Shown: positions 370 to 21,594 of the stretch, piece after piece
Position numbering within the stretch: the stretch's first letter is position 1
How the letters are laid out: each line of letters opens with the position of its first letter
Origin: Ostreococcus lucimarinus
Taxonomy: Eukaryota
Reading direction: 5' to 3' (one strand)
DNA: 64,000 nucleotides
Assembly: GCA_000092065.1 (NCBI GenBank)
Contig: CP000592.1
Made by a program: the position numbers and the translations under genes
Notes under the pieces: model-generated
What the model was told of the DNA's origin: nothing
The model's database searches: none
What the model saw: only the letters and a program-made list of their open reading frames with translations

Positions 370-1392
370 TTATTTACGTTGTCGCAAAACGTCAAAGTAA
401 GGATGGCTCTGCGCCTCCTTCGCCGTGATGCGCTCTTGGTGATCGTAGCGCAACAGCTTATCGAGGAAATCGATCGCGTCCGTGCTCACCAGGTGTTGGT
501 TTTCCGCCGTGACGTACTTGTTCCACGGCTTGCGCGAGTGTCGCCCGATGAGCGTCTCAAAGTTCGGGTCGAGTTCGATGCGGTACTTGTTCAAGTACGC
601 GTATAACTCGTCCGTTCCGAGCACCTTGGCGATGCGCACCAACTGATCGTAGTTGTCGTGACCGGCGAAGAATGGTTCTTTTCGGAAAATCATCCCCGCG
701 AACATGCACCCGAGACTCCACATGTCCAACGAATAGTCATAGTCTTGCAAGTCGACCAACAACTCTGGACCTTTAAAGTACCTCGACGCCACGCGAACGT
801 TGTACTCCTTCCCGGGATGATAAAACTCCGCCAGCCCCCAATCGATCAAACGCAGCTCTCGCTTAGAGTGATCAATCATCACGTTGTGCGGCTTGACGTC
901 TCGATGCATGATGCCCTGCGAGTGACAAAAATCCAACGCCTTGAGCAATTCGTTGATGTAATACCGAATATCGTAATCCGTCAGCGTCGGATACAACGCT
1001 TTAAAATCTGTATTATTCACGTATTCAAACACCAAACTCGGCGTTTTCGTCGACGGTTCTCGCACGACGTCCAACAGTTTGATCACGTTGACGCCGCCCG
1101 CCAGATTTTGCAAAATTTTAATCTCCCGCTTGATCTTCTTCTTCTTCACCGGTTTCAAAATCTTGATCACGCACTTCTCCCCGCTCTCCGTCCGTCGTCC
1201 CTCGAACACCTCGCTGTATTTCCCGCGCCCCACCTTTCGCACGACCTCGTACTCGTCCTGTTCGCCCCACTGCACGCTCAGCGCCTCGTAGTCCCAGTAC
1301 TCGCGCGCCTTTTCATCATTCGCCTCGGCGTACACGCGCGCCCGCGACGCCACCGCGTCGCGCCGGATCGCCTTACCGATCCTCGACGACAT
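370..1392 (-). CDS. Casein kinase II catalytic subunit alpha (CK2 alpha)
   Basis: The 340-aa ORF carries CK2-alpha hallmarks: [11 protein letters not shown] glycine loop, the basic cluster [24 protein letters not shown] catalytic loop, [10 protein letters not shown], and [23 protein letters not shown]. Confidence 0.92.
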
Positions 1393-1625: not shown

Positions 1626-3242
1626 GTGCGGCGATCGACGCGCGCGGCGTCGACAGACGACGACGCGCGAGGCGCGTCTCGCGGCGCGGCGCGCATGGCG
1701 GACGCGGCGACGCGCGCGGGCGCGTCGGCGAGCGCGTCGGCGAGCGCGAGCGCGCGCGACGCGCGAGCGCGCGACGGCGGCGCGCTGCGATGCGAGTTTC
1801 GAGTGATGCGACTGCGCGCGCCGGCGTACGAACACGCGGGCGCGCGCGAGGGACGCGCGATCGACGACGGAGACGACGGTGACGACGCGCGCGCGACGCG
1901 CGGCGCGCGAGCGAGCGGCGCGGACGCGGACGCGGACGCGGGACGGAACGACGACGACGACGCGCGGCGACGACGCGAACGCGAGACGACGAGCGGCGAG
2001 CTGACGCTGCCGCAATCGTTCGGCGCCGTCGCGCTGGGCGAACGGTTTAGCTCGTTCGTGACGTTTGGGAATTTTTCAGAGCCGACGAGCGGGGCGAGCG
2101 GGACGGCGCGGGAGATCGGGATCAAGGTGGAGCTGCAGACGGAGACGCGGCGAACGACGCTGCGAGACGGGACGAAGACGCCGATTGAGACGCTGCGACC
2201 GGGGGAGAAGGTGGATTTGATCGTCACGAAGGATTTGAAAGAGCTCGGCGCGCACACGCTGGTGTGCTCGGCGACGTATTACGACGCCGCGGGGGAGCGG
2301 AAGTATTCGCCGCAGTATTTCAAGTTCAACGTGGCGAATCCGCTGAGCGTGCGAACGAAGGTTCGCGCGGCGCCGCGCGGGCGCGCGTTTCTCGAGGTGT
2401 GCATCGAAAATACGACGAGGTATGCGTTGTTGCTCGATAGCGCGCGCTTCGATACGGTGGATGGGATCTTGGCGAAGGACATGACGCCAGAATTCGGCGG
2501 CGCCGCGGCGACGCTCCACGGCGTCGACGACTCCCCGGACGCCGGTTTACCTTCGCTCGGTAAGCGCGCGGTGTATCGCCTCGATCCATCGACCGGGGCT
2601 GCGCACTATCTTTTCGAAATCACGCGCGCGAACGCGAGCGAGGAACCGCTGACGCCGCAGACACAGCTCGGAAAACTCGAGCTCCGCTGGCGCGGCGCCA
2701 TGGGCGATCCCGGCCGGTTGCAGACGCAAGTCATCACCGCCGGCAGCGCGGGATCGACCGCTCCCTCCCCGGTCGCGGCGAAGATGCGTCAGTCGATCAT
2801 CGTCCACCCACGACCGCCCGACGCCGAGGACGTGAGCACGGTGTACGCGGAAACGCCGTTCATCCTGCGCGCCGCCGTCGAGGCCCTCGCGCCCATCAAA
2901 GCCGACGCCTGCGTCGTCCGCGTCAAAGATGTCGTCTCCGGCGTCTACATCGACGGTCCGCGCGCGGTGCGCGTCGGCGCTTTATCCCCTGGACAAACCG
3001 TCAACGTCGACATTCCGTGCGTCGCGCTCGGCTTGGGCGTCCAAACGTGCCCGTCCCTCGTCCTCTGCGACGCCGTCGACGACGCCGCGCGCGCGGCGCC
3101 CGCGCCGTTGGAAGTCTTCTCCGTCATCCCGCCCCCGTCCGTCGTCCTCGACGCGCTCAAACGCGTCGAAACCATCGACGTCGCGTCGCCGCCCGTCGAC
3201 GTCGCGCCGTCGCTCGACGCACCGATCGACTCGCTTTTGTAA
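1626..3242 (+). CDS. TRAPPC13: TRAPPC13-like protein (DUF974 family), carrying an Asp/Gly/Arg-rich low-complexity insertion
   Basis: GELTLPQSFGAVALGERFSSF, HTLVCSATYYDAAGERKYSPQYFKFNVANPLSVRTK and GRLQTQ align with conserved blocks of metazoan TRAPPC13. The exact start is uncertain; other in-frame Met codons sit near 1695. Confidence 0.6.
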   Translation: MRRSTRAASTDDDARGASRGAARMADAATRAGASASASASASARDARARDGGALRCEFRVMRLRAPAYEHAGAREGRAIDDGDDGDDARATRGARASGADADADAGRNDDDDARRRRERETTSGELTLPQSFGAVALGERFSSFVTFGNFSEPTSGASGTAREIGIKVELQTETRRTTLRDGTKTPIETLRPGEKVDLIVTKDLKELGAHTLVCSATYYDAAGERKYSPQYFKFNVANPLSVRTKVRAAPRGRAFLEVCIENTTRYALLLDSARFDTVDGILAKDMTPEFGGAAATLHGVDDSPDAGLPSLGKRAVYRLDPSTGAAHYLFEITRANASEEPLTPQTQLGKLELRWRGAMGDPGRLQTQVITAGSAGSTAPSPVAAKMRQSIIVHPRPPDAEDVSTVYAETPFILRAAVEALAPIKADACVVRVKDVVSGVYIDGPRAVRVGALSPGQTVNVDIPCVALGLGVQTCPSLVLCDAVDDAARAAPAPLEVFSVIPPPSVVLDALKRVETIDVASPPVDVAPSLDAPIDSLL

Positions 3243-3288
3243 AATACGCCGCCGCCTCGCCGCCGCCGCACACATCGTCGCGCCGCGC

Positions 3289-4197
3289 ATGCTCTGCGCG
3301 CGTTCGCCCGCGAGCGTCCCCCGCGTCGTCTCCCGCGCCTTCTCCGCGCCCCGTCGCGCGTCGACGCGCGACGCGCGACGCTCCAGCGCGCGTTTCCTCG
3401 CGCGCGCGTCCGCCGTTCCCCCGGCGCGCGAACGCGTCGCGTCGCTCGAATCTCGCGCGACGACGCGCGCGATGGCGCCGCGCGCGCCCGCGAGATCGCG
3501 ATCGCGATCGTCCGCGCGCGCGAGGGCGTCGAGCGGCGGCGCGGACGACGCGGCGGCGCGGTACGGGTTGGCGAACGCGGAGCGCGGCGTCGCGCTGCGG
3601 TGGCTCCCGACGTTTTTGACGCTCCTGCGCGTCGCCGCGGTGCCGCTGCTCGCGGCGGTGTATTACAGCGATCTGGCGAACGCGGCGCCGATCGCGGGGA
3701 CGATGTTCATCGGCGCCGCGATCACGGATTGGTTGGACGGATACCTGGCGAGACGGTTGAAGGCGAGCAGCGCGTTCGGCGCGTTTTTGGATCCGGTGGC
3801 CGATAAGCTCATGGTCGCCGCGTCCCTGTGCCTGCTGTGCACGCACGCGCCGCGAGGCGTCGCGGCGTGGGCGGTGGCGGTGCCGTCGATCGTCATCATC
3901 GGACGCGAGATCACCATGAGCGCGCTGCGAGAGTGGTGCGCGGCGAAGGGCGGCGAGGCGCACGCCGCCGTCAAGGTGAATAATCTCGGTAAATACAAGA
4001 CGGCGACGCAAATGGTGGCGCTGAGCGTGTTATTACTCGTCAGAGACGGGTCGGACTTCTTCGCGAACGGGGCGCACGATGCTTTGTTGGTGCGAGGGGG
4101 CGTGTGGTGCCTCTGGATCTCCGCCGCGTTGGCTTTGATTTCGTTGTGGGTCTACATGAGCGGCGTCATCGGAATCATGCTCAAATCCGATGATTAA
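3289..4197 (+). CDS. CDP-diacylglycerol--glycerol-3-phosphate 3-phosphatidyltransferase (PGP synthase, CDP-alcohol phosphatidyltransferase family), with an Arg/Ser/Ala-rich N-terminal presequence suggesting organelle targeting
   Basis: The CDP-OH phosphatidyltransferase motif D-G-x2-A-R-x8-G-x3-D-x3-D is present in ITDWLDGYLARRLKASSAFGAFLDPVADK, with multiple TM helices. The ORF extends upstream in-frame to 2929 and overlaps the TRAPPC13 3' end, so the start was placed at the first ATG after that gene (3289). Confidence 0.7.
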   Translation: MLCARSPASVPRVVSRAFSAPRRASTRDARRSSARFLARASAVPPARERVASLESRATTRAMAPRAPARSRSRSSARARASSGGADDAAARYGLANAERGVALRWLPTFLTLLRVAAVPLLAAVYYSDLANAAPIAGTMFIGAAITDWLDGYLARRLKASSAFGAFLDPVADKLMVAASLCLLCTHAPRGVAAWAVAVPSIVIIGREITMSALREWCAAKGGEAHAAVKVNNLGKYKTATQMVALSVLLLVRDGSDFFANGAHDALLVRGGVWCLWISAALALISLWVYMSGVIGIMLKSDD

Positions 4198-4313
4198 TCG
4201 TTCGTCGGTCTGTGTGTTATGTATGCTCTATGCTATGGTAGCGCGTGTGAATATGTTTTGCTCTTGTGATGATGCATGTTGTCTTGCGTTACGCGCTCTC
4301 GACGCGTCGCGCA

Positions 4314-6329
4314 TCACCCTTGTTCCATTTTCTGCGAGAGAATCTTGAAGCGTTCTTCGGCGGCGACTCTTTCGCGCAACTCTTTCGCGCCTTGACGATC
4401 GGGGTGGAAGCGCAACAACGCTTTCCTGTACGCGCTACGTAGTTGCTTCGCGTTCGCGTGCGCGCCACCTTCGACCGCGACGCCGAAACACTCGAGAGTC
4501 TCCGCCAAATTTAACGAAGCCACCTTCGTCTCCCATTCTCGTCTAAATTCTTCCCTAATTGAGTCGGTGCTTTGCTCTTCTTCGTGTCGACTCTCCCGCG
4601 CTTCCCGAAACGTCGCGACTCTACTTTCAGCGGCTTTGATCAAATCTTCAGCCGCCTTTGCTTTTTGCTCTTCTCGCCGCCGGCGTTGCGCTTGCGATTG
4701 CTCCTCTTGCTCCGCAGCCTTGATAAGCGCTTGTGCGTCGATTTCCTCCCGCCGCCGCGCAAGAATCGCGCCAACGGCATCGCTGACGATCCATTTCTTA
4801 CTCACGAGCATGTTGAACACTTCTTGTAGCAAAACAGGCTCCCCCAAGCCGCGCGAGTGCGCCGCGTCGTCTTCCAACACCGCCCCGAGAGCGTTGCAGA
4901 GCAGATTGGCGCGCTCGGAACCGTTTTCAGCCAGCTTGAACGCGGTTTGCGCGCTCTTTAACGCTACTCCATGCGCAATCGCAATGGCCGATATCAATTC
5001 CGCGTTTGAATCGTCCAAGAACTCTGTTTCCTCTTCTCTCGCAGACGTCGGCGCCGCCGCCGCCTGCGACTGCGTGCCCCGGGCGAACGACACTAAATCG
5101 TCGATGGATGAGTTCGACCCCGTTGCGAGCGGCGATTTCGGAAGCTTTTCTAGCGGCGACTTGCCCTTGTCTGCGCGCATACTCGACATGGTCGGCTCTT
5201 TTCGCGAGTGCGTGTACGTGTACGGAGGCGGTGTCGGCGGCGCACCGTCGAAGTCTGGTTCGGAGCACGGTTTCAGCGTTCCCGGACACAGCATCAAATC
5301 TACCCACATGTCAGATCCTTCCTCGGCGAAAATAACGCGAGCCGAATTTCTCCCACAGTAGTACTCCCCACGAACTAATCGACACGGCACGCCCGCGCTC
5401 GCCGCTAAAGTTTTGAACAAAATCGCTCGATGGCGTTCGACTCCCTTGGATAAATGCCCGACATGCAGACAACATCCCGACTGACTGCTCGCGTTCAACA
5501 GCTGCTCGCGATCCTCCGCCGTCGCGAGCACAAGGGTTGGATCGTCGATGGTCTTCACGGACCCGCCCAAACGATCGCTCACCAATCTGGCCAGCGCAGC
5601 GCACCGGGCCCGTACGTTCGGCACCTGCGAGCACGTCTCCCGCGCCAACTCGTCGAGCGCGTTCAAAAACATATCCGTGCGCCTGTCCACGACGAAAACT
5701 TCCTCCGTCGCCGTGACCGGTGGCCTCTTGAGCAGATCTCCGAGCGCGGGCAATTGTCCATCCACTGAACTCTCGAACGCGTCGCCCCAGACGTCGTAAA
5801 ACCCGTCGCACGTCTCATCCAAGACTTCGTCCGCGTCGAGCGCTTGCGAGATCCAAAACTTTGACGCCAAGCTTTGCCCCTTACCCCGTCCTTTTCCCGC
5901 GGCATCCGCGGCATCAAATTCCAGCTCCACCGCCAGCACATCCGCGCTCGTCTCTTTCGTGCTCGCCTCGAGCGCGAACTGCATTTCGCGCGCGTCGAAG
6001 CCATCCGTTCGCGCGCGCGCCGAAGCCGTCGCGCGCGCAGCCGTCCCGCCCGCGTCCAGCGCGTCCACTTGGTACATCGCCGACGCCGCCTCGTCCGTCG
6101 ACATCGGCGGCGCCGCGCGCATCGCGTTGACGGTAAACGGCGCGCCCGCGCCATCGCCGCGCTCTTTTCGTCGTTTCAGTCGCGCTGCGTCGCGACGTTT
6201 GCGATTGATTACGTCAGTCCTCTGGTGGTTAAAAGTTGACCGAACGCGCGTCGTCGCGTCGTCGCGCGCGTCGAGCGCGCGTCGAGCGCGTCGAGCGCTC
6301 CGAGACGTACACTTTATCGATTTGAGCAT
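4314..6329 (-). CDS. Protein with an EDR1/CTR1 N-terminal-type domain and a C-terminal DnaJ (J) domain; no kinase domain
   Basis: The central block FWISQALDADEVLDETCDGFYDVWG ... GHLSKGVERHRAILFKTLAASAGVPCRLVRGEYYCGRNSARVIFAEEGSDMWVDLMLCPGTLKP matches the EDR1 domain found N-terminal to plant CTR1/EDR1 kinases. The C-terminus LRSAYRKALLRFHPDRQGAKELRERVAAEERFKIL is a J-domain with the HPD motif. Confidence 0.6.
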   Translation of the reverse strand: MLKSIKCTSRSARRARRALDARDDATTRVRSTFNHQRTDVINRKRRDAARLKRRKERGDGAGAPFTVNAMRAAPPMSTDEAASAMYQVDALDAGGTAARATASARARTDGFDAREMQFALEASTKETSADVLAVELEFDAADAAGKGRGKGQSLASKFWISQALDADEVLDETCDGFYDVWGDAFESSVDGQLPALGDLLKRPPVTATEEVFVVDRRTDMFLNALDELARETCSQVPNVRARCAALARLVSDRLGGSVKTIDDPTLVLATAEDREQLLNASSQSGCCLHVGHLSKGVERHRAILFKTLAASAGVPCRLVRGEYYCGRNSARVIFAEEGSDMWVDLMLCPGTLKPCSEPDFDGAPPTPPPYTYTHSRKEPTMSSMRADKGKSPLEKLPKSPLATGSNSSIDDLVSFARGTQSQAAAAPTSAREEETEFLDDSNAELISAIAIAHGVALKSAQTAFKLAENGSERANLLCNALGAVLEDDAAHSRGLGEPVLLQEVFNMLVSKKWIVSDAVGAILARRREEIDAQALIKAAEQEEQSQAQRRRREEQKAKAAEDLIKAAESRVATFREARESRHEEEQSTDSIREEFRREWETKVASLNLAETLECFGVAVEGGAHANAKQLRSAYRKALLRFHPDRQGAKELRERVAAEERFKILSQKMEQG

Positions 6330-6464: not shown

Positions 6465-6479
6465 CTAGATTAAAGACGA

Positions 6480-6518
<39 letters not shown>

Positions 6519-7184
6519 GGGCGCCGGCGTCGGCGCGCCGCCCGCGCTCGCCGACGACTTGGCCACGCACAACCACCCCAGAAACACGTACATCAACATC
6601 ACCGGATACACCGCCAGCGCCCTTCTCGACGCCGGCATCGCCGCGCTCACGAACGGCACGCTCGCTTTACTGCTCCACGTCACCGCCGCCGCGACGACGA
6701 TGAATCTGTACACCTTATTCTCGCTCGCCAGGCACAGCGCGCTCGCCAGGCACAGCGGCACCACGCAGTACCCCAACAGCGCCACGCTCTGCAAGAATAT
6801 GATCTTCCCGCCCAGCAACAGCACGTTCGCCGTCAGCGCCACCGCGCCGAGCCCGACCGTCGCGAAGACGACGCTGAACGTCTCGCTCGCGTTCGCCGCG
6901 CCGCCGCTCAGCGTCGCGCTCAGCGTCAGCACGAACGCCAGCGGTCCCCACAGGTCCCACTCTCGCAGCCGCGTCGCGCCGTTCGCCCCCCAGTTCATCG
7001 GCAGCAGCACCGCCGCGCAGTTTCGCCGCACCACGGCGCAATCGCGCCTGACGGTGGCCCAAATCGTTTCATCCAGCGTCCCGAACGCGAGATCGCTCGT
7101 CTCGCTCGCGCCCACGCGCGCGCGCTCGATCTCGTGCTCGCGCGACGCGAACAGCGGCACCGCGTCGCCGAGCGCGCCGTTCAT
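6465..7184 (-). CDS. YIPF6: Yip1-domain protein (YIPF6-like), ending in a (Thr-Pro)n tail
   Basis: LREWDLWGPL..., LLGGKIIFLQSVALLGYCVVPL and RRALAVYPVMLMYVFLGWL match YIPF6 conserved blocks, with 5 TM segments. The C-terminal PTPTPTPTPTP is encoded by a hexanucleotide repeat. Confidence 0.7.
6483..6540. repeat. (GGCGTC)n hexanucleotide microsatellite lying inside the 3' coding end of the Yip1 gene, where it encodes (TP)n
   Basis: Direct tandem repeat gcgtcggcgtcggcgtcggcgtcggcgtcggcg visible in the sequence. Confidence 0.7.
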
Positions 7185-7327: not shown

Positions 7328-9028
7328 ATGTTCGCGACCGCGCGCGCGCCCGGCGCGGCGGCCGGCGCGGCGACGCGCGCGACGCGACGGGGAAATCAAC
7401 GCGAGGGCGCGACGACGCGCGCGGCGACGACGACGACGCGACGCGCGATGCGCGTGCGCGCGCGCGCGGCGTGCAAACTGACCACGTCCGTCATCGCGCC
7501 GAACCTGGAGCTCGCGCTGCGGGACGTGGACGACGCCGTGAGGAAGGGCGCGGACGTCGTGGAGCTCAGGGTGGATTTCTTGCGCGACGACGCGGCGCGC
7601 GGGACGCTGGGCGACGCGATCGAAGCGCTGATTAAAGCGTCGCCGGTGCCGGTGATCGTGACGAATCGACCGACTTGGGAGGGAGGGCAAGATGATGGGG
7701 ACGAGAGCGCGCGGTTGGAGGCGCTTTGGAGGGCGCACGAGTGCGGGGCGGCGTACGTGGATTGCGAGGCGCTCGCGGCGGAGCGATTCTTCGCGGCGAA
7801 ACCGGCGACGGCGACGCTGAGGAATGGGAAGACTAAGATCATTTTGAGCTCGCATAATTACGATGAGACGCCGAACGATGAGATTTTGGCGGAGATTCAC
7901 GCGAAGTGCGTGCGCTTGGGGGCGGATATCGTCAAGATGGCGTCGGTGTGTAACGCGGTGGAGGACGTGGCGCGATTGGAGAAGCTCTTGCGCACGAAGG
8001 GAAGGGAGATCGAGACGATCGTTTTGGGCATGAGCGAGCACGGACAAGTGTCTCGATTGCTCGCGGCGAAGTTTGGAAGCTTTTTGACGTTCGGGGCGAT
8101 TCGAAGAGGGGAAGAGAGCGCACCGGGGCAGCCGTTGCTCGAAGAGCTGCGAGATTTGTATCGCGTGCCGACGCAGACGGCGGCGACAAAGGTGATGGGC
8201 GTGATCGGGAACCCGATCGGACACAGTAAGTCACCGGCGTTACACAATCCTTGTCTCGCCGCCGCGGGCGTGGATGCGTGCTACGTCCCGTTACTCGTCA
8301 AGGATATCAAAACCTTTCTCGCGTCGCCGCTCTTCGGGTCGAAGGACTTTGTGGGGTTTAGCGTGACGATTCCGCATAAGGAAGACGCCTTGGAGTGCTG
8401 CGCCGAGGTCGACCCCGTGGCGAAGCAAATCGGCGCGGTGAACACGTTGGTTCGTCAACCGGATGGATCGTTAAAGGGTTACAACACCGATTATGTCGCC
8501 GCGATCGAGGCTATCGAAAACGCGATGGAGAAGAAAACGGGCGTCGCCGCCGCGAAGTCCTTGGCTGGGAAAACAGTCGTCGTCATCGGCGCCGGCGGTG
8601 CGGGCAAGGCTTTGGCGTTCGGCGCTAAGTTTAAGGGCGCCAACGTCGTCATCGCCAATCGCAGCGTCGAGCGCGCACAGGCGCTCGCTGACGCGTGCGG
8701 CGGCGTCGCGGTGTCGCTCGAAGATTTAGCGAGCGGTAGCGTCGTCGGCGACGTCTTGGCCAATAGCACCTCGGTCGGGATGCAACCGAACGTTGAAGAC
8801 ACGCCGACGCCAGCGTCTGTACTCGGAGGGTTTTCCGTCGTCTTCGACGCGGTGTACACCCCGCTCGAGACGCGGCTCTTGCGCGAAGCCAAGGCGAGTG
8901 GGTGCGAAATCGCGAGCGGGCTGGACATGTTCGTCGGGCAAGCGGCGAGGCAGTTCGAGCTCTTCACCGGGAAAGAGGCCGAGGTTGAGCTCATGCGCGA
9001 CGCCGTGTTGTCGAGCATAAAAAGGTAA
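7328..9028 (+). CDS. Bifunctional 3-dehydroquinate dehydratase / shikimate dehydrogenase (plant-type DHQ-SDH) with a plastid-like transit peptide
   Basis: The N-terminal half is a type I DHQase (VVELRVDFL, AAYVDCE, KIILSSHNYDETP, KMASV). The C-terminal half is a shikimate dehydrogenase (GVIGNPIGHSKSPALHN, GAVNTL, NTDYVAAIEA, VVVIGAGGAGKALAFGA, ANRSVERAQALA). The N-terminus is Ala/Arg/Thr-rich. Confidence 0.88.
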   Translation: MFATARAPGAAAGAATRATRRGNQREGATTRAATTTTRRAMRVRARAACKLTTSVIAPNLELALRDVDDAVRKGADVVELRVDFLRDDAARGTLGDAIEALIKASPVPVIVTNRPTWEGGQDDGDESARLEALWRAHECGAAYVDCEALAAERFFAAKPATATLRNGKTKIILSSHNYDETPNDEILAEIHAKCVRLGADIVKMASVCNAVEDVARLEKLLRTKGREIETIVLGMSEHGQVSRLLAAKFGSFLTFGAIRRGEESAPGQPLLEELRDLYRVPTQTAATKVMGVIGNPIGHSKSPALHNPCLAAAGVDACYVPLLVKDIKTFLASPLFGSKDFVGFSVTIPHKEDALECCAEVDPVAKQIGAVNTLVRQPDGSLKGYNTDYVAAIEAIENAMEKKTGVAAAKSLAGKTVVVIGAGGAGKALAFGAKFKGANVVIANRSVERAQALADACGGVAVSLEDLASGSVVGDVLANSTSVGMQPNVEDTPTPASVLGGFSVVFDAVYTPLETRLLREAKASGCEIASGLDMFVGQAARQFELFTGKEAEVELMRDAVLSSIKR

Positions 9029-11364: not shown

Positions 11365-13026
11365 ATGTCGCACGCCGCGCACCTCCGCCGCGCGCTCTCG
11401 CGCGCGCTCTCGCGCGCGAGCGCCGCGCGCGCGCCGCTCGGCCCGGTCGCGAACCCTGGAGCGACACCCGATCGCGCCGCCGCGCTGAAGCGCGACGCGC
11501 TCCGCGCCTACGCCACGGGCCCGGCGCGACACGAGAAACAAATCTCCGACGATCTGCTCGCGAAGCTCGGCGGGCTGTCCACGCAGGCGCTGATCGATGG
11601 ATTGTGGGTCATGGGATGGCCGACGAGCCACGTGATGGGCGCGCGACCGCTCACGGAGGGACAAAAGAAACTGGTCGGACGCGCGGTGACGCTTCGATTC
11701 GTGCCGCAGCGACCGGATATCGCGGCGAGTAAACCGGCGGGGATGGAATCGCCGGAATACGAGGCGTTTGAACAGACCGGGCCGAACGAGTGCGTGGTCA
11801 TGGAGAGCGTCGGGCCGTGGGAGAGCGTCGGCGGCGATATCAAGTTTTTACGATTGGCGCAGCTTAAATGCGCGGGATTAGTGACCGATGGAAGCGTGAG
11901 AGACACCGCGGTGTTGCGGGAGTACGGATTTCCGGTGTTTTCGATTTCGACGACGCCGAGACAAGGACCGCACGTGCACCAGCCGTGGGAGGCGAACGGC
12001 GTCATCACGTGCGGCGGCATCGTCGTGCGACCGGGCGACGCGATCATCGGCGATCAAGACGGCGTTGTCGTTATTCCAGCGTCTCACGCGCAGGAAGTGT
12101 ACGATATCGCGCACTCTCGAGAGATTGTCGAGGATATCGTGAAGACGGAGCTCGCGACAAATCCGGGTCCGCCGGGCAAATTTTATCCGTTTGTGAGCGG
12201 CAAGATCAAGAAGGACTCGCCGTTGTGCAAGTTGCTCGCGAGCAAGGGCTACGACTCGAGCAAGTTTGCGCACACCGCCGCGAACCCGGGCGCTCGCGCC
12301 GGTCTCGGTGGTATTCCGAAGAGCCGCAATACGCTCGGCGCGCGCAGATCGATGAGCCAACAAGTTCGTCACAAGTCGTACATGCGAACCGACGCCGAGT
12401 TCAACGAAGTGCTCGATCAGTTTGCCAAGCACAAGGCGTGTGCTGTCCTCCGCACGGGAGTCGAAGGTGCGGCGTACAACGCCATGGACGCCGCCGTCCA
12501 AGGCGGCTTCAAGCTCGTTGAATTCACCCTCACCACCCCAGGCTGCCTCGACGCGGTTTCCCGATTTGCCTCCCGCACCGACGTCTTGACCGGCTGCGGT
12601 ACTATTCTCAACATCGACGACGCCAAGAGAGCTTTGGACGCTGGGTCGAAATTTATCGTTGCTCCGATTTTGATTCCGGAAGTTGTCGAGTGGTGCGCGG
12701 CGAACAAAATCGTCTGCATCCCGGGCTGCCAAACCCCGAGCGAGTTGTACCGCGCGTACAGCCTCGGCGCCCCCGTGCAAAAGCTCTTCCCGGGTGTCGC
12801 CGGTGGCCCTAACTGGGTTCGCGCCGTCGCCTCGGCGCTTCCGATGCTTCGAATCAACCCGACGTCGGGCGTCGAAATCGACACCGCCGCCGACTACTTG
12901 CGTGCGGGCGCCGCCTCTCTCGGTTTCGTCGCCCCGGCGTTCGATCAAAACGCCATCAAGGCGGGTGATTGGGACGCCATCTCCAAGCGTGCGACTGAAA
13001 TTATTGCCGCCGTGAAGGCCGCGTAA
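11365..13026 (+). CDS. Two-domain fusion: an N-terminal RraA-like (4-hydroxy-4-methyl-2-oxoglutarate aldolase / oxaloacetate decarboxylase fold) domain and a C-terminal KDPG/KHG aldolase (Eda-like) domain
   Basis: The N-terminal half (GRAVTLRF..., LVTDGSVRDTAVLREYGFPVFSISTTP, IIGDQDGVVVIPA) matches the RraA/MenG fold. The C-terminal half (VLRTGVEGA..., LVEFTLTTPGCLDAVSRF, GCGTILN, IVAPILIPEVVEWC, IPGCQTPSE, KLFP) matches the Eda TIM-barrel aldolase. The product is 553 aa with an Ala/Arg-rich N-terminus. Confidence 0.7.
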   Translation: MSHAAHLRRALSRALSRASAARAPLGPVANPGATPDRAAALKRDALRAYATGPARHEKQISDDLLAKLGGLSTQALIDGLWVMGWPTSHVMGARPLTEGQKKLVGRAVTLRFVPQRPDIAASKPAGMESPEYEAFEQTGPNECVVMESVGPWESVGGDIKFLRLAQLKCAGLVTDGSVRDTAVLREYGFPVFSISTTPRQGPHVHQPWEANGVITCGGIVVRPGDAIIGDQDGVVVIPASHAQEVYDIAHSREIVEDIVKTELATNPGPPGKFYPFVSGKIKKDSPLCKLLASKGYDSSKFAHTAANPGARAGLGGIPKSRNTLGARRSMSQQVRHKSYMRTDAEFNEVLDQFAKHKACAVLRTGVEGAAYNAMDAAVQGGFKLVEFTLTTPGCLDAVSRFASRTDVLTGCGTILNIDDAKRALDAGSKFIVAPILIPEVVEWCAANKIVCIPGCQTPSELYRAYSLGAPVQKLFPGVAGGPNWVRAVASALPMLRINPTSGVEIDTAADYLRAGAASLGFVAPAFDQNAIKAGDWDAISKRATEIIAAVKAA

Positions 13027-13115: not shown

Positions 13116-15023
13116 TTACTTCCTACTCGAACACGAAAAAACCGTCGGTCGATAGTTCGGGACATACATGGTTGAATACACGTACTCGCTCATCGCTTCC
13201 TCGCCCTGCGCGACGATGTGACGAATGTCTTCCGGCACTCGACCCTCGCGCGCGGCGGCTTCGATGACCTTGATCGCAACGTACGCCGAGATATCGCGGA
13301 TGCGATCGATACGCGGAAAGATAGTGCCTTCTGTGTATTGTTCGGGCGTGAGCATAGCTGGGATAGCCATCGCGGCGGCTTGAAGCATCGCGTCGGAGAT
13401 GACAGACGATTTCGACAGCAACGCACCGAGACCAAGTCCGGGAAAGACGTAAAAGTTATTGCCCTGATTCGCCTTCATCACTCTGCCATTAATCTCGACA
13501 TCGCTGAACGGCGAACCAGATGAAAAGATAGCCCTTCCGTCAGTCGCGTTCGCGGCGTCCTCCGCCGTACATTCGGCACGAGACGTCGGATTTGAGAGCG
13601 GCATGATAATCGGGCGCTCGTTTATTTTACCCATTTCCTCAAGCACCTCCTTCGAAAATAGCCCCTTCACCGTGGAAACGCCGAGTAAAACCGTGGGTTT
13701 CGCCTTTTTAATCACGTCCATGAGCGACGCGCCCTCGGGCATGTCGTTTCGGTTGCGTGCGAAACCTTTCAGCGGCTCCTGTCCGGGATCGTCCAACGCG
13801 CGTTCGGCGGTGACCAGCCCGTTGGCGTCGATGATGTAAAATCTCTTGTATGCTTCCTCGGCCGTCAATCCATTCGCAACCATAGCTTGGTGTAGGAATG
13901 ATGCTATACCACATCCCGCGCTTCCAGCGCCGCACATGACGAAGGTTTGTTTGACAATATCCTTGCGATGACCATGAAGACACTTCATCGCTCCGTACAC
14001 GCCGGCTAGGACGACGGCCGCGGTGCCTTGGATATCATCGTTGAAGCACAGAACTTCATCGCGATAGTGCTGCAAAATTTTGTTCGCGTGCTTCGTTTGA
14101 AAGTCTTCGAACTGAATCAACGCGTTTGGCCACCGGTTTCGCACGCCGCGAATAAACTCCTCCACAAACGCGTAATACTCCTCACCTTCCAGTCGCTTGT
14201 GCGGCGACCCGAGATAATAGGGATCGTTCAAAAGATCTGGATTGTTCGTGCCAACGTCGAGGACGACTGGCAAAACATGCTGCGGATCAAAACCACCCCC
14301 GGCGACGTACAGGTCCAATTTCCCTTGCGAAATTCCCATACCATTCATGCCGAGATCGCCCAAACCCAAAATCCTCGACCCGTCGGTGACCACTATGACG
14401 GAGACGTTCCGTTTCCAGTTGAACATCATCGAGTTAAAATCGCCCCTATCCTCGCGCGAAAAGTACATCCCTCTCGCCCGGCGCAATAACTTTGAATATT
14501 CAAGGCACGCGTCTCCGACCGTCGGCGTGTAAATCACCGGCGCTAATTCCTCGATGTGATCGTGCACCAGGCGATAAAACAACGTCTCGTTACGATCCTT
14601 CAAATCTTGAAGGTGACTCCACCGATCCAGCGGACGCTTCAGCGCTTTATTTTGCGCCCATATCTTCACCGCTTGCTGTCCGATCGTGAAGAACCGCGGC
14701 GGCACGAGCCCGCGAATGCCCAATCGTTCGCGTTCGCTCGCGCTGAACCCGGTGCCTTTATTGTATATGGGATTGTGGAGCACCTCGATGCCGCGCGACG
14801 TGTCGGGATGCATCACCACCACGTCGTCCACCGCGCGCCTGTGACTGTTCGTCCCGATGGGTTCGATCATGCTCGACGCTCGCGAGCGCTCGTCGTCGTC
14901 GAGCAGCGCGCCGACGGCGTTCGACGACGCGGTGGTCGTTGCCGCGTCGCGCGCGAAAATCGACGCGGTGCCGCGCGCGGTGGACGCGAGCGCGCGCGAG
15001 CGCGCGACGGACGCGGAGAGCAT
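13116..15023 (-). CDS. NAD(P)-dependent malic enzyme, preceded by a transit-peptide-like N-terminus
   Basis: Strong matches along the whole length: VVTDGSRILGLGDLG, FEDF, FNDDIQGTAAVVLAG, VMCGAGSAGCGIA, PIIMPLSNPTSRAEC, NNFYVFPGLGLG. The ORF continues upstream to 15326; the start was set at Met 102 (ATG 15023-15021), where the transit-peptide-like sequence begins. Confidence 0.9.
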   Translation of the reverse strand: MLSASVARSRALASTARGTASIFARDAATTTASSNAVGALLDDDERSRASSMIEPIGTNSHRRAVDDVVVMHPDTSRGIEVLHNPIYNKGTGFSASERERLGIRGLVPPRFFTIGQQAVKIWAQNKALKRPLDRWSHLQDLKDRNETLFYRLVHDHIEELAPVIYTPTVGDACLEYSKLLRRARGMYFSREDRGDFNSMMFNWKRNVSVIVVTDGSRILGLGDLGMNGMGISQGKLDLYVAGGGFDPQHVLPVVLDVGTNNPDLLNDPYYLGSPHKRLEGEEYYAFVEEFIRGVRNRWPNALIQFEDFQTKHANKILQHYRDEVLCFNDDIQGTAAVVLAGVYGAMKCLHGHRKDIVKQTFVMCGAGSAGCGIASFLHQAMVANGLTAEEAYKRFYIIDANGLVTAERALDDPGQEPLKGFARNRNDMPEGASLMDVIKKAKPTVLLGVSTVKGLFSKEVLEEMGKINERPIIMPLSNPTSRAECTAEDAANATDGRAIFSSGSPFSDVEINGRVMKANQGNNFYVFPGLGLGALLSKSSVISDAMLQAAAMAIPAMLTPEQYTEGTIFPRIDRIRDISAYVAIKVIEAAAREGRVPEDIRHIVAQGEEAMSEYVYSTMYVPNYRPTVFSCSSRK

Positions 15024-15190
15024 CGCACGTCGCGTCGGTCGCGTCGACTGGATCCGCGCGGGAGCGCGGCGTCGACGTGTGGCGTCGCGATTTGGGTTTA
15101 TCTGCTTTCCCGGCGACGGGGACGGGACGGGACGGGACGCGACGAACGCGACGGAATGTAGACTATCGATTGAAACGATTATGGCTAAGG

Positions 15191-17674
15191 CTATTGCTTC
15201 AATCGAGCCTTGATTTCGTCGGTGTCGCCGTACCAGTGCTCGAAGACGCCGATGGCGTGATGGATGACGTCGAGACGGCGGCGAAGGTCGGCGGCGCGCG
15301 CGGCGGCGCGATCGAGCGGGGGACATCGGGCGTCGGCTCGCGCCTCAGCGCGGCCGCGCCTACGGAAGACGAAGGCGACGCTCATGCGTGGTGGATCTGG
15401 GCTGTCGATTTCACACGCGCTGCCCCAGTGGATGATGTTTCCTGACCATGCGAGGAGGGCGCCGGCGTCGACGGGGGCGAGGGGCTTGGCGGCGCCGCGA
15501 GGCACCTCGGGGGCGGATTTTGAAACGTCACTTCGCCCACCATCTTCGTCGTCTTTCTTCGACACGACGTACATGCACCCACTTGTTTCCGTGACGCGGT
15601 TCAACGGGAGCCAAAGGCTGAGGACTTGCGTTTTACCATCTTCGTCGACGGCGTCCGAGAGGGAGTAGTCGCGATGCGGAACGCCAAAGTTGTTACCGAT
15701 GTAACGCTTCCCAGATGCGTCTTTTTCGAGCTTGAACGCGGCAACGGATGGTTCTAACACGCACTCACCGCCAAGTAGGACCTCCGCGTGCGCGAATAGC
15801 AAGTCGATGACACGCCAGGCAACGTCGGAAACGAATATGCACGCCGGCGGCCACTTGGCGTCGACGAGCGCCTCGATGCCGCTGCGGAGCGCGTTGGTAT
15901 CCTTAATCGGCACGATAACATCGCCCCACACGTAGCCGTTCTCTTGTAGCGACGCCACGTGCTCTTGCGTTGCGCTAGCGTCGATTTCACTCACGGTCGC
16001 ATCGCTGTTGCTTGACACCGCGCAGCCGTGCGTGCTTAAAATGGCGTTCCAGTAGGTTGCGTCGAAAACGTTCGTCGAAATTGCCTTTCCCGGAGCTGCA
16101 TCTTCGCCCTCGTCTCCGAACGCGTCCCATGCCGAGTTCTTGTCATCGATCGCTGGTAAATTTCGTACGTCCTCGTCCTCGTCGTTGGCGGCGTAATCGA
16201 GCACAGTAAAGTGCCCGTGTGTATCGACATCAGCGATGCGATAAGGAAATCGAGCGGCGTCGGCGCCAAGCTTTTCTCGCAGTCGCGCGTGCCAGTGCTC
16301 GGGATGAAAACTTTCAACATTCTTCGACGGGTCGAACCAAGTGCATACGATATCGCGTTCTCTCACATCGCTCGTTGCGCTCGTCCTCGTACGCTTTTCT
16401 GGCCGACTTTCCACGTCCTCAAAAGTGACGTCGGCGGGATCTCGCAGCAAGTGCGCATTGTCGCCCAGCGCCTCCAAAGCGGATCCATTCATGCCCGATA
16501 ACGCCAAAACACCGGTATCGGCGTTGATAAGCGTTCGTACACGCAGTACGATCGTCTCATCGTCGCCTTGTGGCCAAGATCCTACGATGGCGTCGTACTT
16601 GGCGCCGCTCGCGCGTTCGAGAAAATCTAAAAAGTCTTCGCTCCAAACTCTAATCTCCCCGCGAGCGCCTGCATCGCTCGCGTGCACCTTTTTATCACAT
16701 CGCGTGCACTCCAAACCAAAATATTTCACCATCAAGTCCACGACCGTGCCATCTTGTTCGACGACGTCGACGCGCGTCTCCGGTGAGTACGTGCGCATGA
16801 ACGACGCCACGGCGGCGCCTCCGGCGCATCCCAGCGCCAACACCCTTCGCACTGGACCGTCCCCCGGCGATGCCATCGCCACCGCGACGTACGTCGCATC
16901 TCTCCACGAATCTAACGCCAATCCGAGCGGTTCGTTCGGGTCCTTTTCCGCCTCGACTGCACCGTCGCTCCCTCTCCACGGGCCGCGCACGAGCGCTCTC
17001 GTGCATTCGCCCCCGGACCCATCCTCCACCGCCATATCGATCACACTCAGCGCCTCAAGCCCACTGTCTTCCGCTCTTTCCACGTGCTCAATGACTTCTA
17101 CGCTCCACGTCAACTTCCCAGTGCGCGCGTCGACCCCCAACGGCGTCACCAACGTCAACGTCTCGATCAACAACGCAAACGTCCAACGCTCCTCCGCGTC
17201 CAATTCATCCTGTGCTCTCAACGTCGGCGTCGTCGCGCTCGCCATCCCGCTCGACGAATCCACGAAAATCGGTTGTCCGGTGCTCTCGTCGAGCTCCACC
17301 TGATACCCCTCGTTCTCGAGCAATCCATTCGCGACGCCGCCGAGTTCGCTCAAAACCAACAGCGCGCCGTCGCTCGCCGCGAGCGCGTCCGCGTCCGCGC
17401 TCTCCACCGGTGCCCCCGTCGCGCTGTCGCGCTCGACCGCTTGCACGGACCTCAACAAAGGCACGACGCACCCCGACGCGCACAGCGCGAGCGCCCAAGC
17501 GGCGCCGTGACCCTCGTCGCCGATGCGCAGCTCGAGCAGTGATTCCGCGGCGGCGGCGCGTTCGCGCGACGATGGCGACGACAAACGGGCGACAAACGAG
17601 CGCAGACTCGCGGTAGAGTCGACCGACGGCGATGCGCGCGCGGTGTCGCGCGCGTCGTCGCGCGGGCGAGGCAT
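15191..17674 (-). CDS. Large multidomain protein with a central class-I methyltransferase / spermine-synthase-like segment and a C-terminal PhyH-like 2OG-Fe(II) dioxygenase-like segment
   Basis: VLALGCAGGAAVASFMRTYSPETRVDVVEQDGTVVDLMVKYFG resembles a SAM-binding/spermidine-synthase fold. The C-terminal FGVPHRDYS...IIHWGS resembles PhyH. Overall the homology is weak. Confidence 0.4.
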   Translation of the reverse strand: MPRPRDDARDTARASPSVDSTASLRSFVARLSSPSSRERAAAAESLLELRIGDEGHGAAWALALCASGCVVPLLRSVQAVERDSATGAPVESADADALAASDGALLVLSELGGVANGLLENEGYQVELDESTGQPIFVDSSSGMASATTPTLRAQDELDAEERWTFALLIETLTLVTPLGVDARTGKLTWSVEVIEHVERAEDSGLEALSVIDMAVEDGSGGECTRALVRGPWRGSDGAVEAEKDPNEPLGLALDSWRDATYVAVAMASPGDGPVRRVLALGCAGGAAVASFMRTYSPETRVDVVEQDGTVVDLMVKYFGLECTRCDKKVHASDAGARGEIRVWSEDFLDFLERASGAKYDAIVGSWPQGDDETIVLRVRTLINADTGVLALSGMNGSALEALGDNAHLLRDPADVTFEDVESRPEKRTRTSATSDVRERDIVCTWFDPSKNVESFHPEHWHARLREKLGADAARFPYRIADVDTHGHFTVLDYAANDEDEDVRNLPAIDDKNSAWDAFGDEGEDAAPGKAISTNVFDATYWNAILSTHGCAVSSNSDATVSEIDASATQEHVASLQENGYVWGDVIVPIKDTNALRSGIEALVDAKWPPACIFVSDVAWRVIDLLFAHAEVLLGGECVLEPSVAAFKLEKDASGKRYIGNNFGVPHRDYSLSDAVDEDGKTQVLSLWLPLNRVTETSGCMYVVSKKDDEDGGRSDVSKSAPEVPRGAAKPLAPVDAGALLAWSGNIIHWGSACEIDSPDPPRMSVAFVFRRRGRAEARADARCPPLDRAAARAADLRRRLDVIHHAIGVFEHWYGDTDEIKARLKQ

Positions 17675-19215: not shown

Positions 19216-21309
19216 TCACGGCTTACAGGCGGTGATTTGCGCGTATAAGTCGTGTGATTTCGTGTCACACGCGCACGTCATGTCGGTCGCGAACAAAAGA
19301 CGCAGAGCGACGAGGTTCTTGGTGGAGATGACGCGCGAAGCGACGACGTCGGCGACGAGCGAGGCGACGACGGCGTCGCTCGCTGCGTGAGGTTCAAATT
19401 TTTCCGTCACGAAGTCAGCCGCGGTACGGGCTTCTTGGAAAAATCGATCGGCGATTCCGGCGAAGACTGTGACGTCGGAGACAGCCTCGTCGGCGTCGGT
19501 GAGCTCACCTCGAAAGTGACTCAGATTGGCCTCGATGGACGCTTTGTAGTCGTCGTAGTGCGCGGGCGGCGGAAGTTCGACGGTTTGAAACGTGCTGAAT
19601 CGCTGCCAAAAGCGCAGATCTTCGCCACTAAACGCAGTAACACACGGTCGTAGCTTGCCACTGTCGAGGAGTGCGGCGAAGGTGAACCGAAGCGCCGAAT
19701 ACATCGAGAGCTTTTGTTGCTCGGCCAAGAAGCAAAGTTGCGTCTGGATCGTCTGCGTTGACGGTGTCATCGCCTTGCGCCTCAGCGTGACGACACGAAG
19801 CCGCTGCAAATAGTGCATGTAGTAGTACACCATCGCGAGCTCGTGGGGCAAGTACAAGTCGAGCGAAAACCCGAGCTCGAGATGCCTGAGTTCGACGTAG
19901 CACGTCAAGTGTTCCGCCCAGGCAATGCAAGGCGCCTGAAGCGATCGCAAAGTCTCGACTTTAGCCCGATCCTCGTCGCTCGTCGCTAACGCGTCGTCTT
20001 GTGCCGCGTCCAGGGCGTCCGCAGCGATTTGCAGATGACTGAACTCACCGAGCGACCGCCTGAGTACGCGCCTGAAGCGCGCCCGGTTGACGCAAAACGA
20101 TCGAACCACAACCGTCAACGGCTGCACGCACTCGTCGATGAAAGCGTCAACCGCGTCCTTGGGGTGCGCGAACGACGTTTCGAGCGTCTTCGTCGTTACA
20201 CCAGCGAACGTCCAAACGGAATGAAGTCCAACGTGACCGAAGTGCCATCCGCACAGCTCTTTCTCGTGCATCAACTCGGCGGCTGCGAGTCCGAGCGCGA
20301 TGGCTCCCGGTCGACGAGTCTGGAGTCGTTCTAAACACTCCAGGACCTCTTCAATCGTCGGCGCTTCCTTACGAGCACGAAATTTGAACACCTCGGCGGC
20401 GACGAGCACGTCGTCGATCTCTCTTTCGAAATATTCAAACGCTCGTCGAGTGCTCAAAAAGTGCACCTCCCTCGGCGGCGCGCCACCCAACATGTGCAAA
20501 CTCAACCCTTTCGAAAAGCTTCCCGCGTTGGGATCCCAATCCAGCGCGTCTTCATCGTCGACGACGTCTTCGCTATAATAATTTCGCATCTCTTTCAAAC
20601 GCGCCTTGGCCGCGTTCGCGTGTTGTCGCGCCTCGTTTCTCGCATCCGTCCCCGCCCCGATGGCTCCCGTCAACGTCTTCATCATCAAGTGATGTGCCCT
20701 CCTAAATTCTAACCGCGCGACGACGGCTTCGACGTCGCGATCACCCCCACTATCCTCCATCTTCATCAGCGCGCTCGCGAGCTCGATCAAAACCTCGTCG
20801 TCCGCCTCCGCCGTCGCCCACGCTTCGCGCCCGGCGACTTCTCCAAAGTCCCCGAGCACCGCGAAATCCTCTTCCTCGTACACGTCTCCCGTTTTCACCG
20901 CGTGCTGCGCCATCGACGCGCTCGCCAGCGTCGCGCGCGTGAACGCTCGCAGCGCCGGCGTGGCGTCGTCCAAGTGTCCCGTTCGATGTCCCGCGCAGTG
21001 CGCGTTCGTCCACACCGTCGTCGCCGCCGCGTAGCCCTTTCGAAACGTCCCTTCCGCGCACAGCATCGCGTCCAGCTCGCGCACCAGATCGCGGCCGGTG
21101 ATGTCTTTCGGTGCGCGTCCGCTGGCGAGGAGCTGGGCGAGCGTGAGGCGAGAACCGTCCCGCACGGCGCCGGCATCCATCTTCAGGTCGCCGATGTCGA
21201 GCGCGCTCATGGCGTCGAATAGGGAGAAATTGGCGTCGTGCACGAGCTCTCCCGAGGTGAGAACGTTCGATAGCTCATTTATGATGGGATCGAGCGGGAT
21301 CCAGGACAT
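19216..21309 (-). CDS. NAA35: N-alpha-acetyltransferase 35, NatC auxiliary subunit (Mak10 family)
   Basis: The N-terminus MSWIPLDPIINELSNVLTSGELVHDANFSLFDAMSALDIGDLKMDAG matches the Mak10 signature (GELLHD..F.LF.AMSAIE.MDPKMD). The start was set at Met 41 of the ORF (ATG 21309-21307). Confidence 0.75.
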   Translation of the reverse strand: MSWIPLDPIINELSNVLTSGELVHDANFSLFDAMSALDIGDLKMDAGAVRDGSRLTLAQLLASGRAPKDITGRDLVRELDAMLCAEGTFRKGYAAATTVWTNAHCAGHRTGHLDDATPALRAFTRATLASASMAQHAVKTGDVYEEEDFAVLGDFGEVAGREAWATAEADDEVLIELASALMKMEDSGGDRDVEAVVARLEFRRAHHLMMKTLTGAIGAGTDARNEARQHANAAKARLKEMRNYYSEDVVDDEDALDWDPNAGSFSKGLSLHMLGGAPPREVHFLSTRRAFEYFEREIDDVLVAAEVFKFRARKEAPTIEEVLECLERLQTRRPGAIALGLAAAELMHEKELCGWHFGHVGLHSVWTFAGVTTKTLETSFAHPKDAVDAFIDECVQPLTVVVRSFCVNRARFRRVLRRSLGEFSHLQIAADALDAAQDDALATSDEDRAKVETLRSLQAPCIAWAEHLTCYVELRHLELGFSLDLYLPHELAMVYYYMHYLQRLRVVTLRRKAMTPSTQTIQTQLCFLAEQQKLSMYSALRFTFAALLDSGKLRPCVTAFSGEDLRFWQRFSTFQTVELPPPAHYDDYKASIEANLSHFRGELTDADEAVSDVTVFAGIADRFFQEARTAADFVTEKFEPHAASDAVVASLVADVVASRVISTKNLVALRLLFATDMTCACDTKSHDLYAQITACKP

Positions 21310-21594
21310 CGCTTCGCGCGGATGGCGCCGAGAGGCGCGAGGTGAGGTCGACGCGAATCGCGGCGAAGACGGCGAGCGCGCGAGAGAGAGAGCGATGGGC
21401 GAGCGACGCGTGAGACGAATGCGCGTCAATGATAACTACAACATACGTGTTCTCTCTACCGGCCGCGGACGCGATCGACGACGAACGGGATGGGGTTCGA
21501 AACAGACAAACTCCCTTCTCGTTCGCGCGCGTCGCGCCTCGCGGCGCTTCTCTTCTCCTTCGCGACCAGACTAACAAACCAACTCAGTAATCGC

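Follow-up and report, generated by a model that had tools for sequence, protein, structure and literature searches.

A gene of the green alga Ostreococcus lucimarinus (Mamiellophyceae, Chlorophyta) encodes a protein in which an EDR1 domain, the type found in Raf-like mitogen-activated protein kinase kinase kinases (MAPKKKs) such as CTR1 and EDR1, is joined to a C-terminal J-domain in the absence of any kinase domain. The gene lies in a stretch of 64,000 nucleotides (hereafter the window) from contig CP000592.1 of GenBank assembly GCA_000092065.1. From the N-terminus its product displays a ubiquitin-interacting motif (UIM)-type segment, the EDR1 domain in the form of a probable pseudo-transglutaminase, a linker, a putative UBA-like domain, a long helix and a J-domain with the HPD tripeptide (Table 1), and this order is kept even among members whose EDR1 domains are only 31-45% identical. 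The protein is a J-protein of class C whose targeting module is unstudied, and we consider it fairly probable that it acts as a cytosolic class-C (type III) Hsp70 co-chaperone whose EDR1-based recognition end perhaps reads ubiquitin. As judged from sequence comparisons, the architecture is no curiosity of one genome and defines a conserved family of several early-branching chlorophyte lineages.

The identity of the EDR1 domain, which the initial annotation of this DNA had recognized from the motifs DGFYDVWG, RHRAILFKTLA, GVPCRLVRG and DLM..PG, all of them present, is borne out by the Pfam profile PF14381, which matches over positions 3-202 of its 203 (E=1.4e-51; 175.7 bits against a cut-off of 27) and also matches all 14 family members. 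The characteristic residues of the domain (G296, R299-H300-R301, L304-F305-K306, P315-C316-R317, D344-L345 and P349-G350) are in place. Searched exhaustively with HMMER and a family profile, a set of 1.84 billion representative proteins yielded 1372 hits at E<=0.001, and we parsed the architectures of the best 150 of these with hidden Markov models derived from the family together with a kinase motif. These 150 include 12 clusters (at 50% identity) that combine an EDR1 domain with a terminal J-domain and have no kinase (P0001, P0010, P0013-18, P0020, P0023, P0028 and P0099), about 50 proteins with an EDR1 domain and a kinase, a large number of fragments, and proteins of about 450-690 aa which possess only the charged helix and the terminal J module. 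Members with both domains come from Ostreococcus, Pycnococcus provasolii, Pseudoscourfieldia marina and a Pyramimonas transcript. Every host identified belongs to the early-branching ("prasinophyte") Chlorophyta, and the other clusters consist of unassigned metagenome sequences. The pairing of EDR1 and J-domain, which the initial annotation called unusual, is no one-off. The databases already hold the family under uninformative names: those from Pseudoscourfieldia marina and Pycnococcus provasolii are called "chaperone protein dnaJ", and the NCBI name of the window's own protein is "hypothetical protein". We found no description of the architecture in the literature searched. In a neighbor-joining tree of 109 EDR1 domains all 15 domains of the J family fall on one side of a split, together with two further sequences, one of which is truncated. 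Clean monophyly of the J family was recovered in none of 60 bootstrap replicates, and a single origin of the fusion is therefore not demonstrated.

The recognition end begins with a short acidic segment that fits the UIM consensus, namely an acidic run, a hydrophobic residue and x-x-Ala-x-x-x-Ser-x-x-acidic. The segment is conserved within the family, and of 11 divergent representatives 10 have a UIM-type or inverted, MIU-like motif before the EDR1 domain; in P0023 and P0028 the UIM-type motif is replaced by an MIU-like I/M-A-x-x-L-Q. The association extends beyond the J family: a strict UIM pattern precedes the domain in 49 of 98 EDR1-domain representatives, compared with 2 occurrences in a downstream control of equal length and 4.1 predicted from shuffled sequences, and its distance to the domain is mostly 17-36 aa. 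Among representatives of the EDR1-domain Raf-like kinases the pattern is found in 26 of 46 (for example EEEFQVQLALAISAS). In the EDR1-domain kinases among P0024-P0160 the motif reads EEE[FY]Q[VIM]QLALA[IL]S[AV]S, for example in P0033 (aa 84-107) and P0029 (aa 91-114). Since the motif stands upstream of kinase EDR1 domains too, the UIM and the EDR1 domain look like one ancestral unit common to these proteins and the CTR1/EDR1-type kinases. A profile of the UIM-type segments compared with sequences of the PDB retrieved genuine UIMs exclusively, with Hrs as the best match (3.4e-5), followed by RAP80, ZFAND2B, the VWFA-domain proteasome chain 8amz_W and ataxin-3. No mention of a UIM before EDR1 domains was found in the literature searched.

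The EDR1 domain is followed by a Pro/Ser-rich linker, predicted to be disordered, in which three islands stand out by conservation. Invariant or nearly invariant are P364, T366 and P367 in the first, K388, G389, K390 and P392 in the second, and S407, S408, D411, L412, F415 and A416 in the third. The first island is PPxY-like, a type of motif bound by WW domains of HECT E3 ligases. Downstream of the linker lies a helical domain comprised of a three-helix bundle (AIAIAHGV...ERANLLCNALG) and a second helical unit (LLQEVFNMLVSKKWIVSDAV), for which AlphaFold2 (AF2) places helices at residues 440-453, 457-466, 471-490 and 501-510, with a predicted local distance difference test score (pLDDT) of 81-89. 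A family profile of this region finds its best PDB match in TNK1, at the UBA domain (E=0.0072), over 57 columns that span both units. A profile restricted to sequences from outside the Mamiellophyceae likewise retrieves the UBA domains of TNK1 (0.028) and p47 (0.036), with weaker matches to those of FAM100B, Ede1 and ACK1. In the homologue P0016 a Pfam UBA_4 match of 6.4e-7 falls at the equivalent position, and hhalign aligns the Ostreococcus-type and P0016-type regions with 93.7% probability (E=1.9e-7). Foldseek also lists the TNK1 UBA for this region, at a score that is not significant, and a Pfam scan of the window protein itself yields no UBA match. From this domain a single helix of about 90 residues (aa 515-604, pLDDT 82-89), conserved within the family, is modelled as running into the J-domain.

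The C-terminal module is recognizable as a J-domain at several levels. PF00226 matches aa 624-666 over its positions 11-48 of 63 (E=4.5e-5), and the DnaJ profile matches all 14 family members (best 2.3e-7), but of the eight divergent relatives scanned only two, P0020 and P0023, pass the Pfam cut-off. A profile built from the last 72-74 residues of 22 algal and plant sequences matches 65 solved J-domain chains, with no other family among the 60 matches listed; DNAJB8 is the best (8.4e-10), followed by Escherichia coli DnaJ, Sis1, Ydj1, 3ag7 and Sec63. Invariant residues comprise H642-P643-D644, R631, Y634, R635, E658, E659 and K662, with F661 nearly so. AF2 models the whole of aa 440-670 at pLDDT 81-89 and places the J-domain helices at 608-614, 627-641 and 651-670, the latter two at pLDDT 84-89. 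Foldseek returns auxilin J-domains as the top structural matches, with a probability of 0.84-0.98 but E>0.4. All homologues terminate at an equivalent point after helix III, so the absence of helix IV is a family character rather than a truncation.

These elements suggest a mechanism in which the recognition end (the UIM, EDR1 and UBA-like elements, which make up the N-terminal two thirds) would bind a partner or client, plausibly one that carries ubiquitin, and the long helix would space or dimerize the protein. J-domains dock on ATP-bound Hsp70; the present one would do so with the HPD loop and the basic side of helix II, and would set off ATP hydrolysis, upon which Hsp70 would clamp the client held by the N-terminal end. 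As two of the elements are of ubiquitin-binding type, ubiquitylated proteins are possible targets. It is also conceivable, if doubtful, that the UIM and EDR1 domain constitute an ancient self-contained module reading ubiquitin or ubiquitylated clients, which evolution of the green lineage would have plugged variously into a Raf-like kinase (CTR1/EDR1), armadillo repeats (ARMC3) or, among early-branching green algae, a UBA-like domain plus J-domain.

Several points weigh against the proposal of a ubiquitin-reading co-chaperone. The comparison of the UIM profile with the PDB is partly circular, because the UIM pattern had selected its segments, and nine UIM-type segments give no Pfam match at E<=10, although so short a model falls under the filters of HMMER. 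The UBA assignment is moderately significant (E of about 0.007-0.04), and UBA-like folds are not always ubiquitin binders. The structural model of the EDR1 domain is of low confidence (pLDDT 48.5). The PF00226 score of the window protein (23.9 bits) is under the gathering score of 27.8, and the J-domain has no helix IV, with the protein ending about 5 residues past helix III. The identity of the client, the binding of ubiquitin and the stimulation of Hsp70 are matters that we infer, and no experiments on any family member were found in the literature searched.

The most substantial of the alternatives, which we nevertheless regard as unlikely, is partner-specific docking without ubiquitin: the EDR1 domain would bind one protein or membrane site and the J-domain would bring Hsp70 there, with the UIM-like helix and the UBA-like bundle being structural or binding a ligand other than ubiquitin. 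The N-terminus of CTR1 is known to bind ethylene receptors, and the unit of UIM plus EDR1 is common to kinases whose N-termini are known docking regions. The R-H-R/K306/D344 set does not vary from one context to another, a hint of a ligand pocket common to them all, and the UBA statistics, as noted above, are only moderate. However, two independent ubiquitin-binding-type elements are conserved in very divergent members, the Pfam UBA_4 match in P0016 is clean, and the UIM profile retrieves solely genuine ubiquitin-bound UIMs from the PDB. The difference between docking of this kind and the co-chaperone we favor is limited to what the recognition end binds.

The sub-threshold Pfam score and the missing helix IV could alternatively point to a degenerate J-like end that fails to engage Hsp70, leaving the protein as a ubiquitin-binding scaffold only. 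We hold this to be very improbable, as neither the HPD nor the basic face of helix II varies at an EDR1-domain identity of just 31-45%, many genuine J-domains are matched at 1e-6 to 1e-9, and auxilin-type J-domains are the best structural match; moreover, that every homologue ends at the same point argues for a three-helix J form under selection. The terminal J-domain with HPD that the initial annotation had proposed is thus supported chiefly by comparisons at the level of the family, the signal in the single protein being weaker.

PF14381 has been placed in the transglutaminase-like papain-fold group, close to MEROPS families C71 and C93 (PMC10318531), and Pfam Transglut_core gives a weak match to aa 293-344 of the window protein. 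One might picture the EDR1 domain as a working enzyme (a cysteine peptidase, transglutaminase or deubiquitinase) whose substrates are the clients bound to Hsp70. This has hardly any likelihood in view of 158 aligned EDR1 domains (from the J-proteins, kinases and other proteins). The nucleophile position at the N-terminus of the core helix is Glu298 (nt 5436-5438) in the window protein; in the kinases and the remaining proteins this column holds C, S or A. Within the J family Cys never occurs there, the residue being Glu in Mamiellophyceae and Q, P, A, S or T elsewhere. Downstream, at the strand position that the fold leads one to expect, no conserved catalytic His was found. Of the Cys/His/Asp set Asp alone (D344) is retained, and this Asp, like the R299-H300-R301/K306 signature, hardly varies anywhere in the alignment. 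The best structural match of the domain is the inactive protein 4.2; comparison of the EDR1 profile with PDB sequences found no relative. An active peptidase was ruled out on the catalytic columns. With both the nucleophile Cys and a conserved His lacking, the domain is best read as a pseudo-enzyme of probable transglutaminase/papain-like fold that serves binding. The description of the EDR1 domain as a kinase-regulatory region needs to be broadened: the kinases do carry it, but Pfam names it after ARMC3 as well, and its fold is probably that of a pseudo-peptidase. Word-indexed searches for homologues gave 2 matches for the EDR1-domain alignment and 3 for a single EDR1 domain.

There is practically no chance that the gene is a mis-modelled Raf-like kinase gene with a missed exon, a chance ORF (open reading frame) or an assembly chimera, for which the sole support found is a kinase gene 2.9 kb downstream on the same strand: that gene is a complete one for casein kinase II alpha (CK2 alpha), has a start and a stop of its own, and yields a product identical to the annotated O. 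lucimarinus CCE9901 protein XP_001420845.1. Between it and the EDR1-J gene stand two others, for TRAPPC13 and the phosphatidyltransferase, both transcribed in the opposite direction. Neither the Pfam scan nor a search for the HRDxKxxN motif detected a kinase in the ORF, in keeping with the first description of the protein as kinase-free. The stop codon lies 117 bp from that of the convergent phosphatidyltransferase gene, so that there is no room for further exons, and a missed kinase exon, which that description had named as something to look for, was rejected. The layout recurs in independent assemblies. A 93%-identical relative (L001, on a 154-kb contig) has these genes in the same order, the same convergent pair stands beside the most divergent full-length homologue, P0013 (L003; 32-40% identical), and it is also found at L004 and L005. 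The convergent stops are only about 117-129 bp apart in Ostreococcus and at the divergent P0013 (window 4198..4313; L003 2837..2964). P0017 from Pyramimonas, whose cluster record carries the label type:complete, and P0020 are transcriptome ORFs with the EDR1 and J-domains on a single mRNA each. A further EDR1 or J locus of this kind did not turn up in a six-frame scan of the window.

The beginning of the gene is less straightforward than its end. Thirteen homologues of about 590-740 aa can be aligned with the window protein over its entire length, and they start at the equivalent of M70 or of the nearly invariant M85-Y86; the part upstream is unconserved. The true coding sequence probably starts at M70 or M85, and on this basis the first 69 codons are probably an untranslated 5' region. 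This stretch (6123..6329, minus strand) is an Arg/Lys-rich extension of 69 codons without counterpart among the homologues. Gene calls of the JGI differ on the point, some giving 671 aa with the extension included and others 602 or 584 aa without it. The exact 602-aa product is also called on three metagenome contigs.

Table 1. Features of the EDR1-J gene, with residue numbers of the maximal ORF, and of other genes in the window
Feature	Residues	Position (nt)	Strand	Remarks
EDR1-J gene, maximal ORF	671 aa	4314..6329	-	including stop codon 4314-4316
Likely start codons (ATG)	M70 or M85	6120-6122 or 6075-6077	-	602 aa from M70
UIM-type motif	108-128	5946..6008	-	DGFDAREMQFALEASTKETSA; about 25 aa before EDR1 domain
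EDR1/CTR1/ARMC3 peptidase-like domain	152-352	5274..5876	-	Pfam PF14381
Pro/Ser-rich linker, predicted disordered	353-439	5013..5273	-	pLDDT <50 across aa 357-439
Linker motif P-P-T-P-P-P-Y (PPxY-like)	364-370	5220..5240	-	conserved
Linker motif KGKSPL	388-393		-	conserved
Linker motif SSIDDLVSFA	407-416	5082..5111	-	conserved
UBA-like helical domain	440-526	4752..5012	-	AF2, profile matches
Long charged helix/coiled coil	527-604	4518..4751	-	AF2, family conservation
C-terminal J-domain, helices I-III alone	605-671	4317..4517	-	Pfam, profile, AF2
HPD tripeptide	642-644	4398-4406	-	CAC CCC GAT (4406-4398); invariant
Casein kinase II alpha	340 aa	370..1392	-	complete; only kinase nearby
CDP-alcohol phosphatidyltransferase		2929..4197	+	convergent neighbor
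Yip1		6465..7184	-	upstream of EDR1-J gene
Dehydroquinase/shikimate dehydrogenase		7328..9028	+	clusters with O. lucimarinus XP_001420686.1
Malic enzyme		13116..15326	-	ordinary housekeeping
NatC subunit NAA35/Mak10		19216..21429	-	ordinary housekeeping
BRCT-repeat protein	1274 aa	33419..37243	+	ordinary housekeeping
XPD-type helicase (DEAD_2/HBB/Helicase_C_2)		56615..58981	-	ordinary housekeeping

The window as a whole is gene-dense, with a GC content of 55-70% per 2 kb, and ARAGORN found no tRNA genes in it. Its casein kinase II alpha and dehydroquinase/shikimate dehydrogenase genes mark it as DNA of O. lucimarinus or a nearly identical strain. Beyond the genes of Table 1, a 2211-aa ORF (42971..49606, minus strand) has an SNF2 helicase (SNF2-rel_dom 5.4e-82, Helicase_C) accompanied by SAND and PTM/DIR17-like Tudor domains, with a CW-type zinc finger at the C-terminus, an unusual architecture for a chromatin remodeller. 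A 553-aa ORF (11365..13026, plus strand) is a fusion of an RraA-like and a KDPG/KHG aldolase domain, and the same fusion is called at L001.

The interpretation of the gene in the initial annotation was essentially right; what it overlooked are the UIM-type motif, the UBA-like domain and the coiled coil. The specificity of Hsp70 is supplied by J-domain proteins, and each new targeting module found in such a protein points to a new class of clients. CTR1 and EDR1 are central plant regulators of ethylene signalling and disease resistance, and the unit that precedes their kinase remains poorly understood in what it binds and how it acts. A kinase-free version in the tiny, nearly intron-free and genetically tractable Ostreococcus makes a simpler experimental system available, and the flanking ubiquitin-binding-type elements furnish a testable hypothesis, namely that the EDR1 unit relates to ubiquitin recognition. 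The presence of a UIM before about half of EDR1 domains could be relevant to the connection, already known, of EDR1 with E3 ligases. Should the UIM and EDR1 domain indeed form a ubiquitin-reading module, the algal protein would be a ubiquitin-directed Hsp70 co-chaperone and a kinase-free model for the ligand of the enigmatic N-terminal domain of CTR1/EDR1.

With the CTR1/EDR1-type Raf-like MAPKKKs the algal protein shares the same EDR1 domain, including the G-x-x-R-H-R-A-L-L-F-K ... P-C-R ... D-L-M..P-G signature, and the UIM-type motif about 17-36 aa upstream of it, as in the 26 of 46 kinase representatives. Unlike these kinases, it ends in a UBA-like domain, a coiled coil and a J-domain in place of a kinase, and its family never has the Cys that they may show, beside S or A, in the nucleophile column. 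ARMC3 of animals, in which armadillo repeats are combined with an EDR1 domain, would provide another instance of the kinase-free use of this domain, as indicated by the Pfam name and the reference list of PMC10318531; however, Pfam finds no armadillo repeats in the algal protein, and ARMC3 lacks a J-domain. For the UBA-like region the best match in both sequence and structure is the UBA of TNK1/ACK1, the likeness covering the bundle and the following ...W-D-L..A unit (aa 440-526). The match has E-values no better than 0.007-0.03; in the Ostreococcus protein the second unit is divergent (KKWIVSDAV), and the protein context differs entirely.

Outside the family, the closest J-domains (1e-18 to 1e-21 against its J profile) belong to the J-only proteins of land plants, about 450-690 aa long, such as KAM7468449.1 of Lonicera macranthoides. 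They share the pattern L..LG[IV].V.GG....+.AY+.ALL.FHPDR...+V.AEE.FK.I, the charged helix that precedes it and the C-terminal end, but their long acidic N-terminus contains no detectable domains and they have neither an EDR1 nor a UBA-like domain. Members of this land-plant group, which end in FHPDR...VEAEEKFKLIS, include P0121, P0129, P0136, P0143-P0150, P0153, P0156, P0157 and P0160; a second such protein of L. macranthoides is KAM7464431.1. Auxilin/GAK and auxilin-like plant proteins (JAC1) resemble the algal protein in having a J-domain without helix IV at the extreme C-terminus behind a client-binding region, and auxilin-type structures (3ag7, auxilin-like, from Arabidopsis, and 1nz6) are among the matches of the J profile. 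Yet the sequence match is confined to helix II to HPD, and Pfam shows no clathrin-binding or PTEN-like region in the algal protein. Membership in the auxilin group was not adopted, the likeness being limited to the J-domain and weak. A further parallel in functional logic may be DNAJB2 (HSJ1), in which two UIMs accompany a J-domain and whose J-domain is itself among the PDB matches of the J profile (2lgw, 2.4e-6). The J-domain of DNAJB2 is N-terminal, the protein has no EDR1 or UBA-like domain, and homology is confined to the J-domain; by analogy, however, the algal protein may likewise couple ubiquitin-binding motifs to a J-domain that recruits Hsp70, a logic that is well established for DNAJB2.

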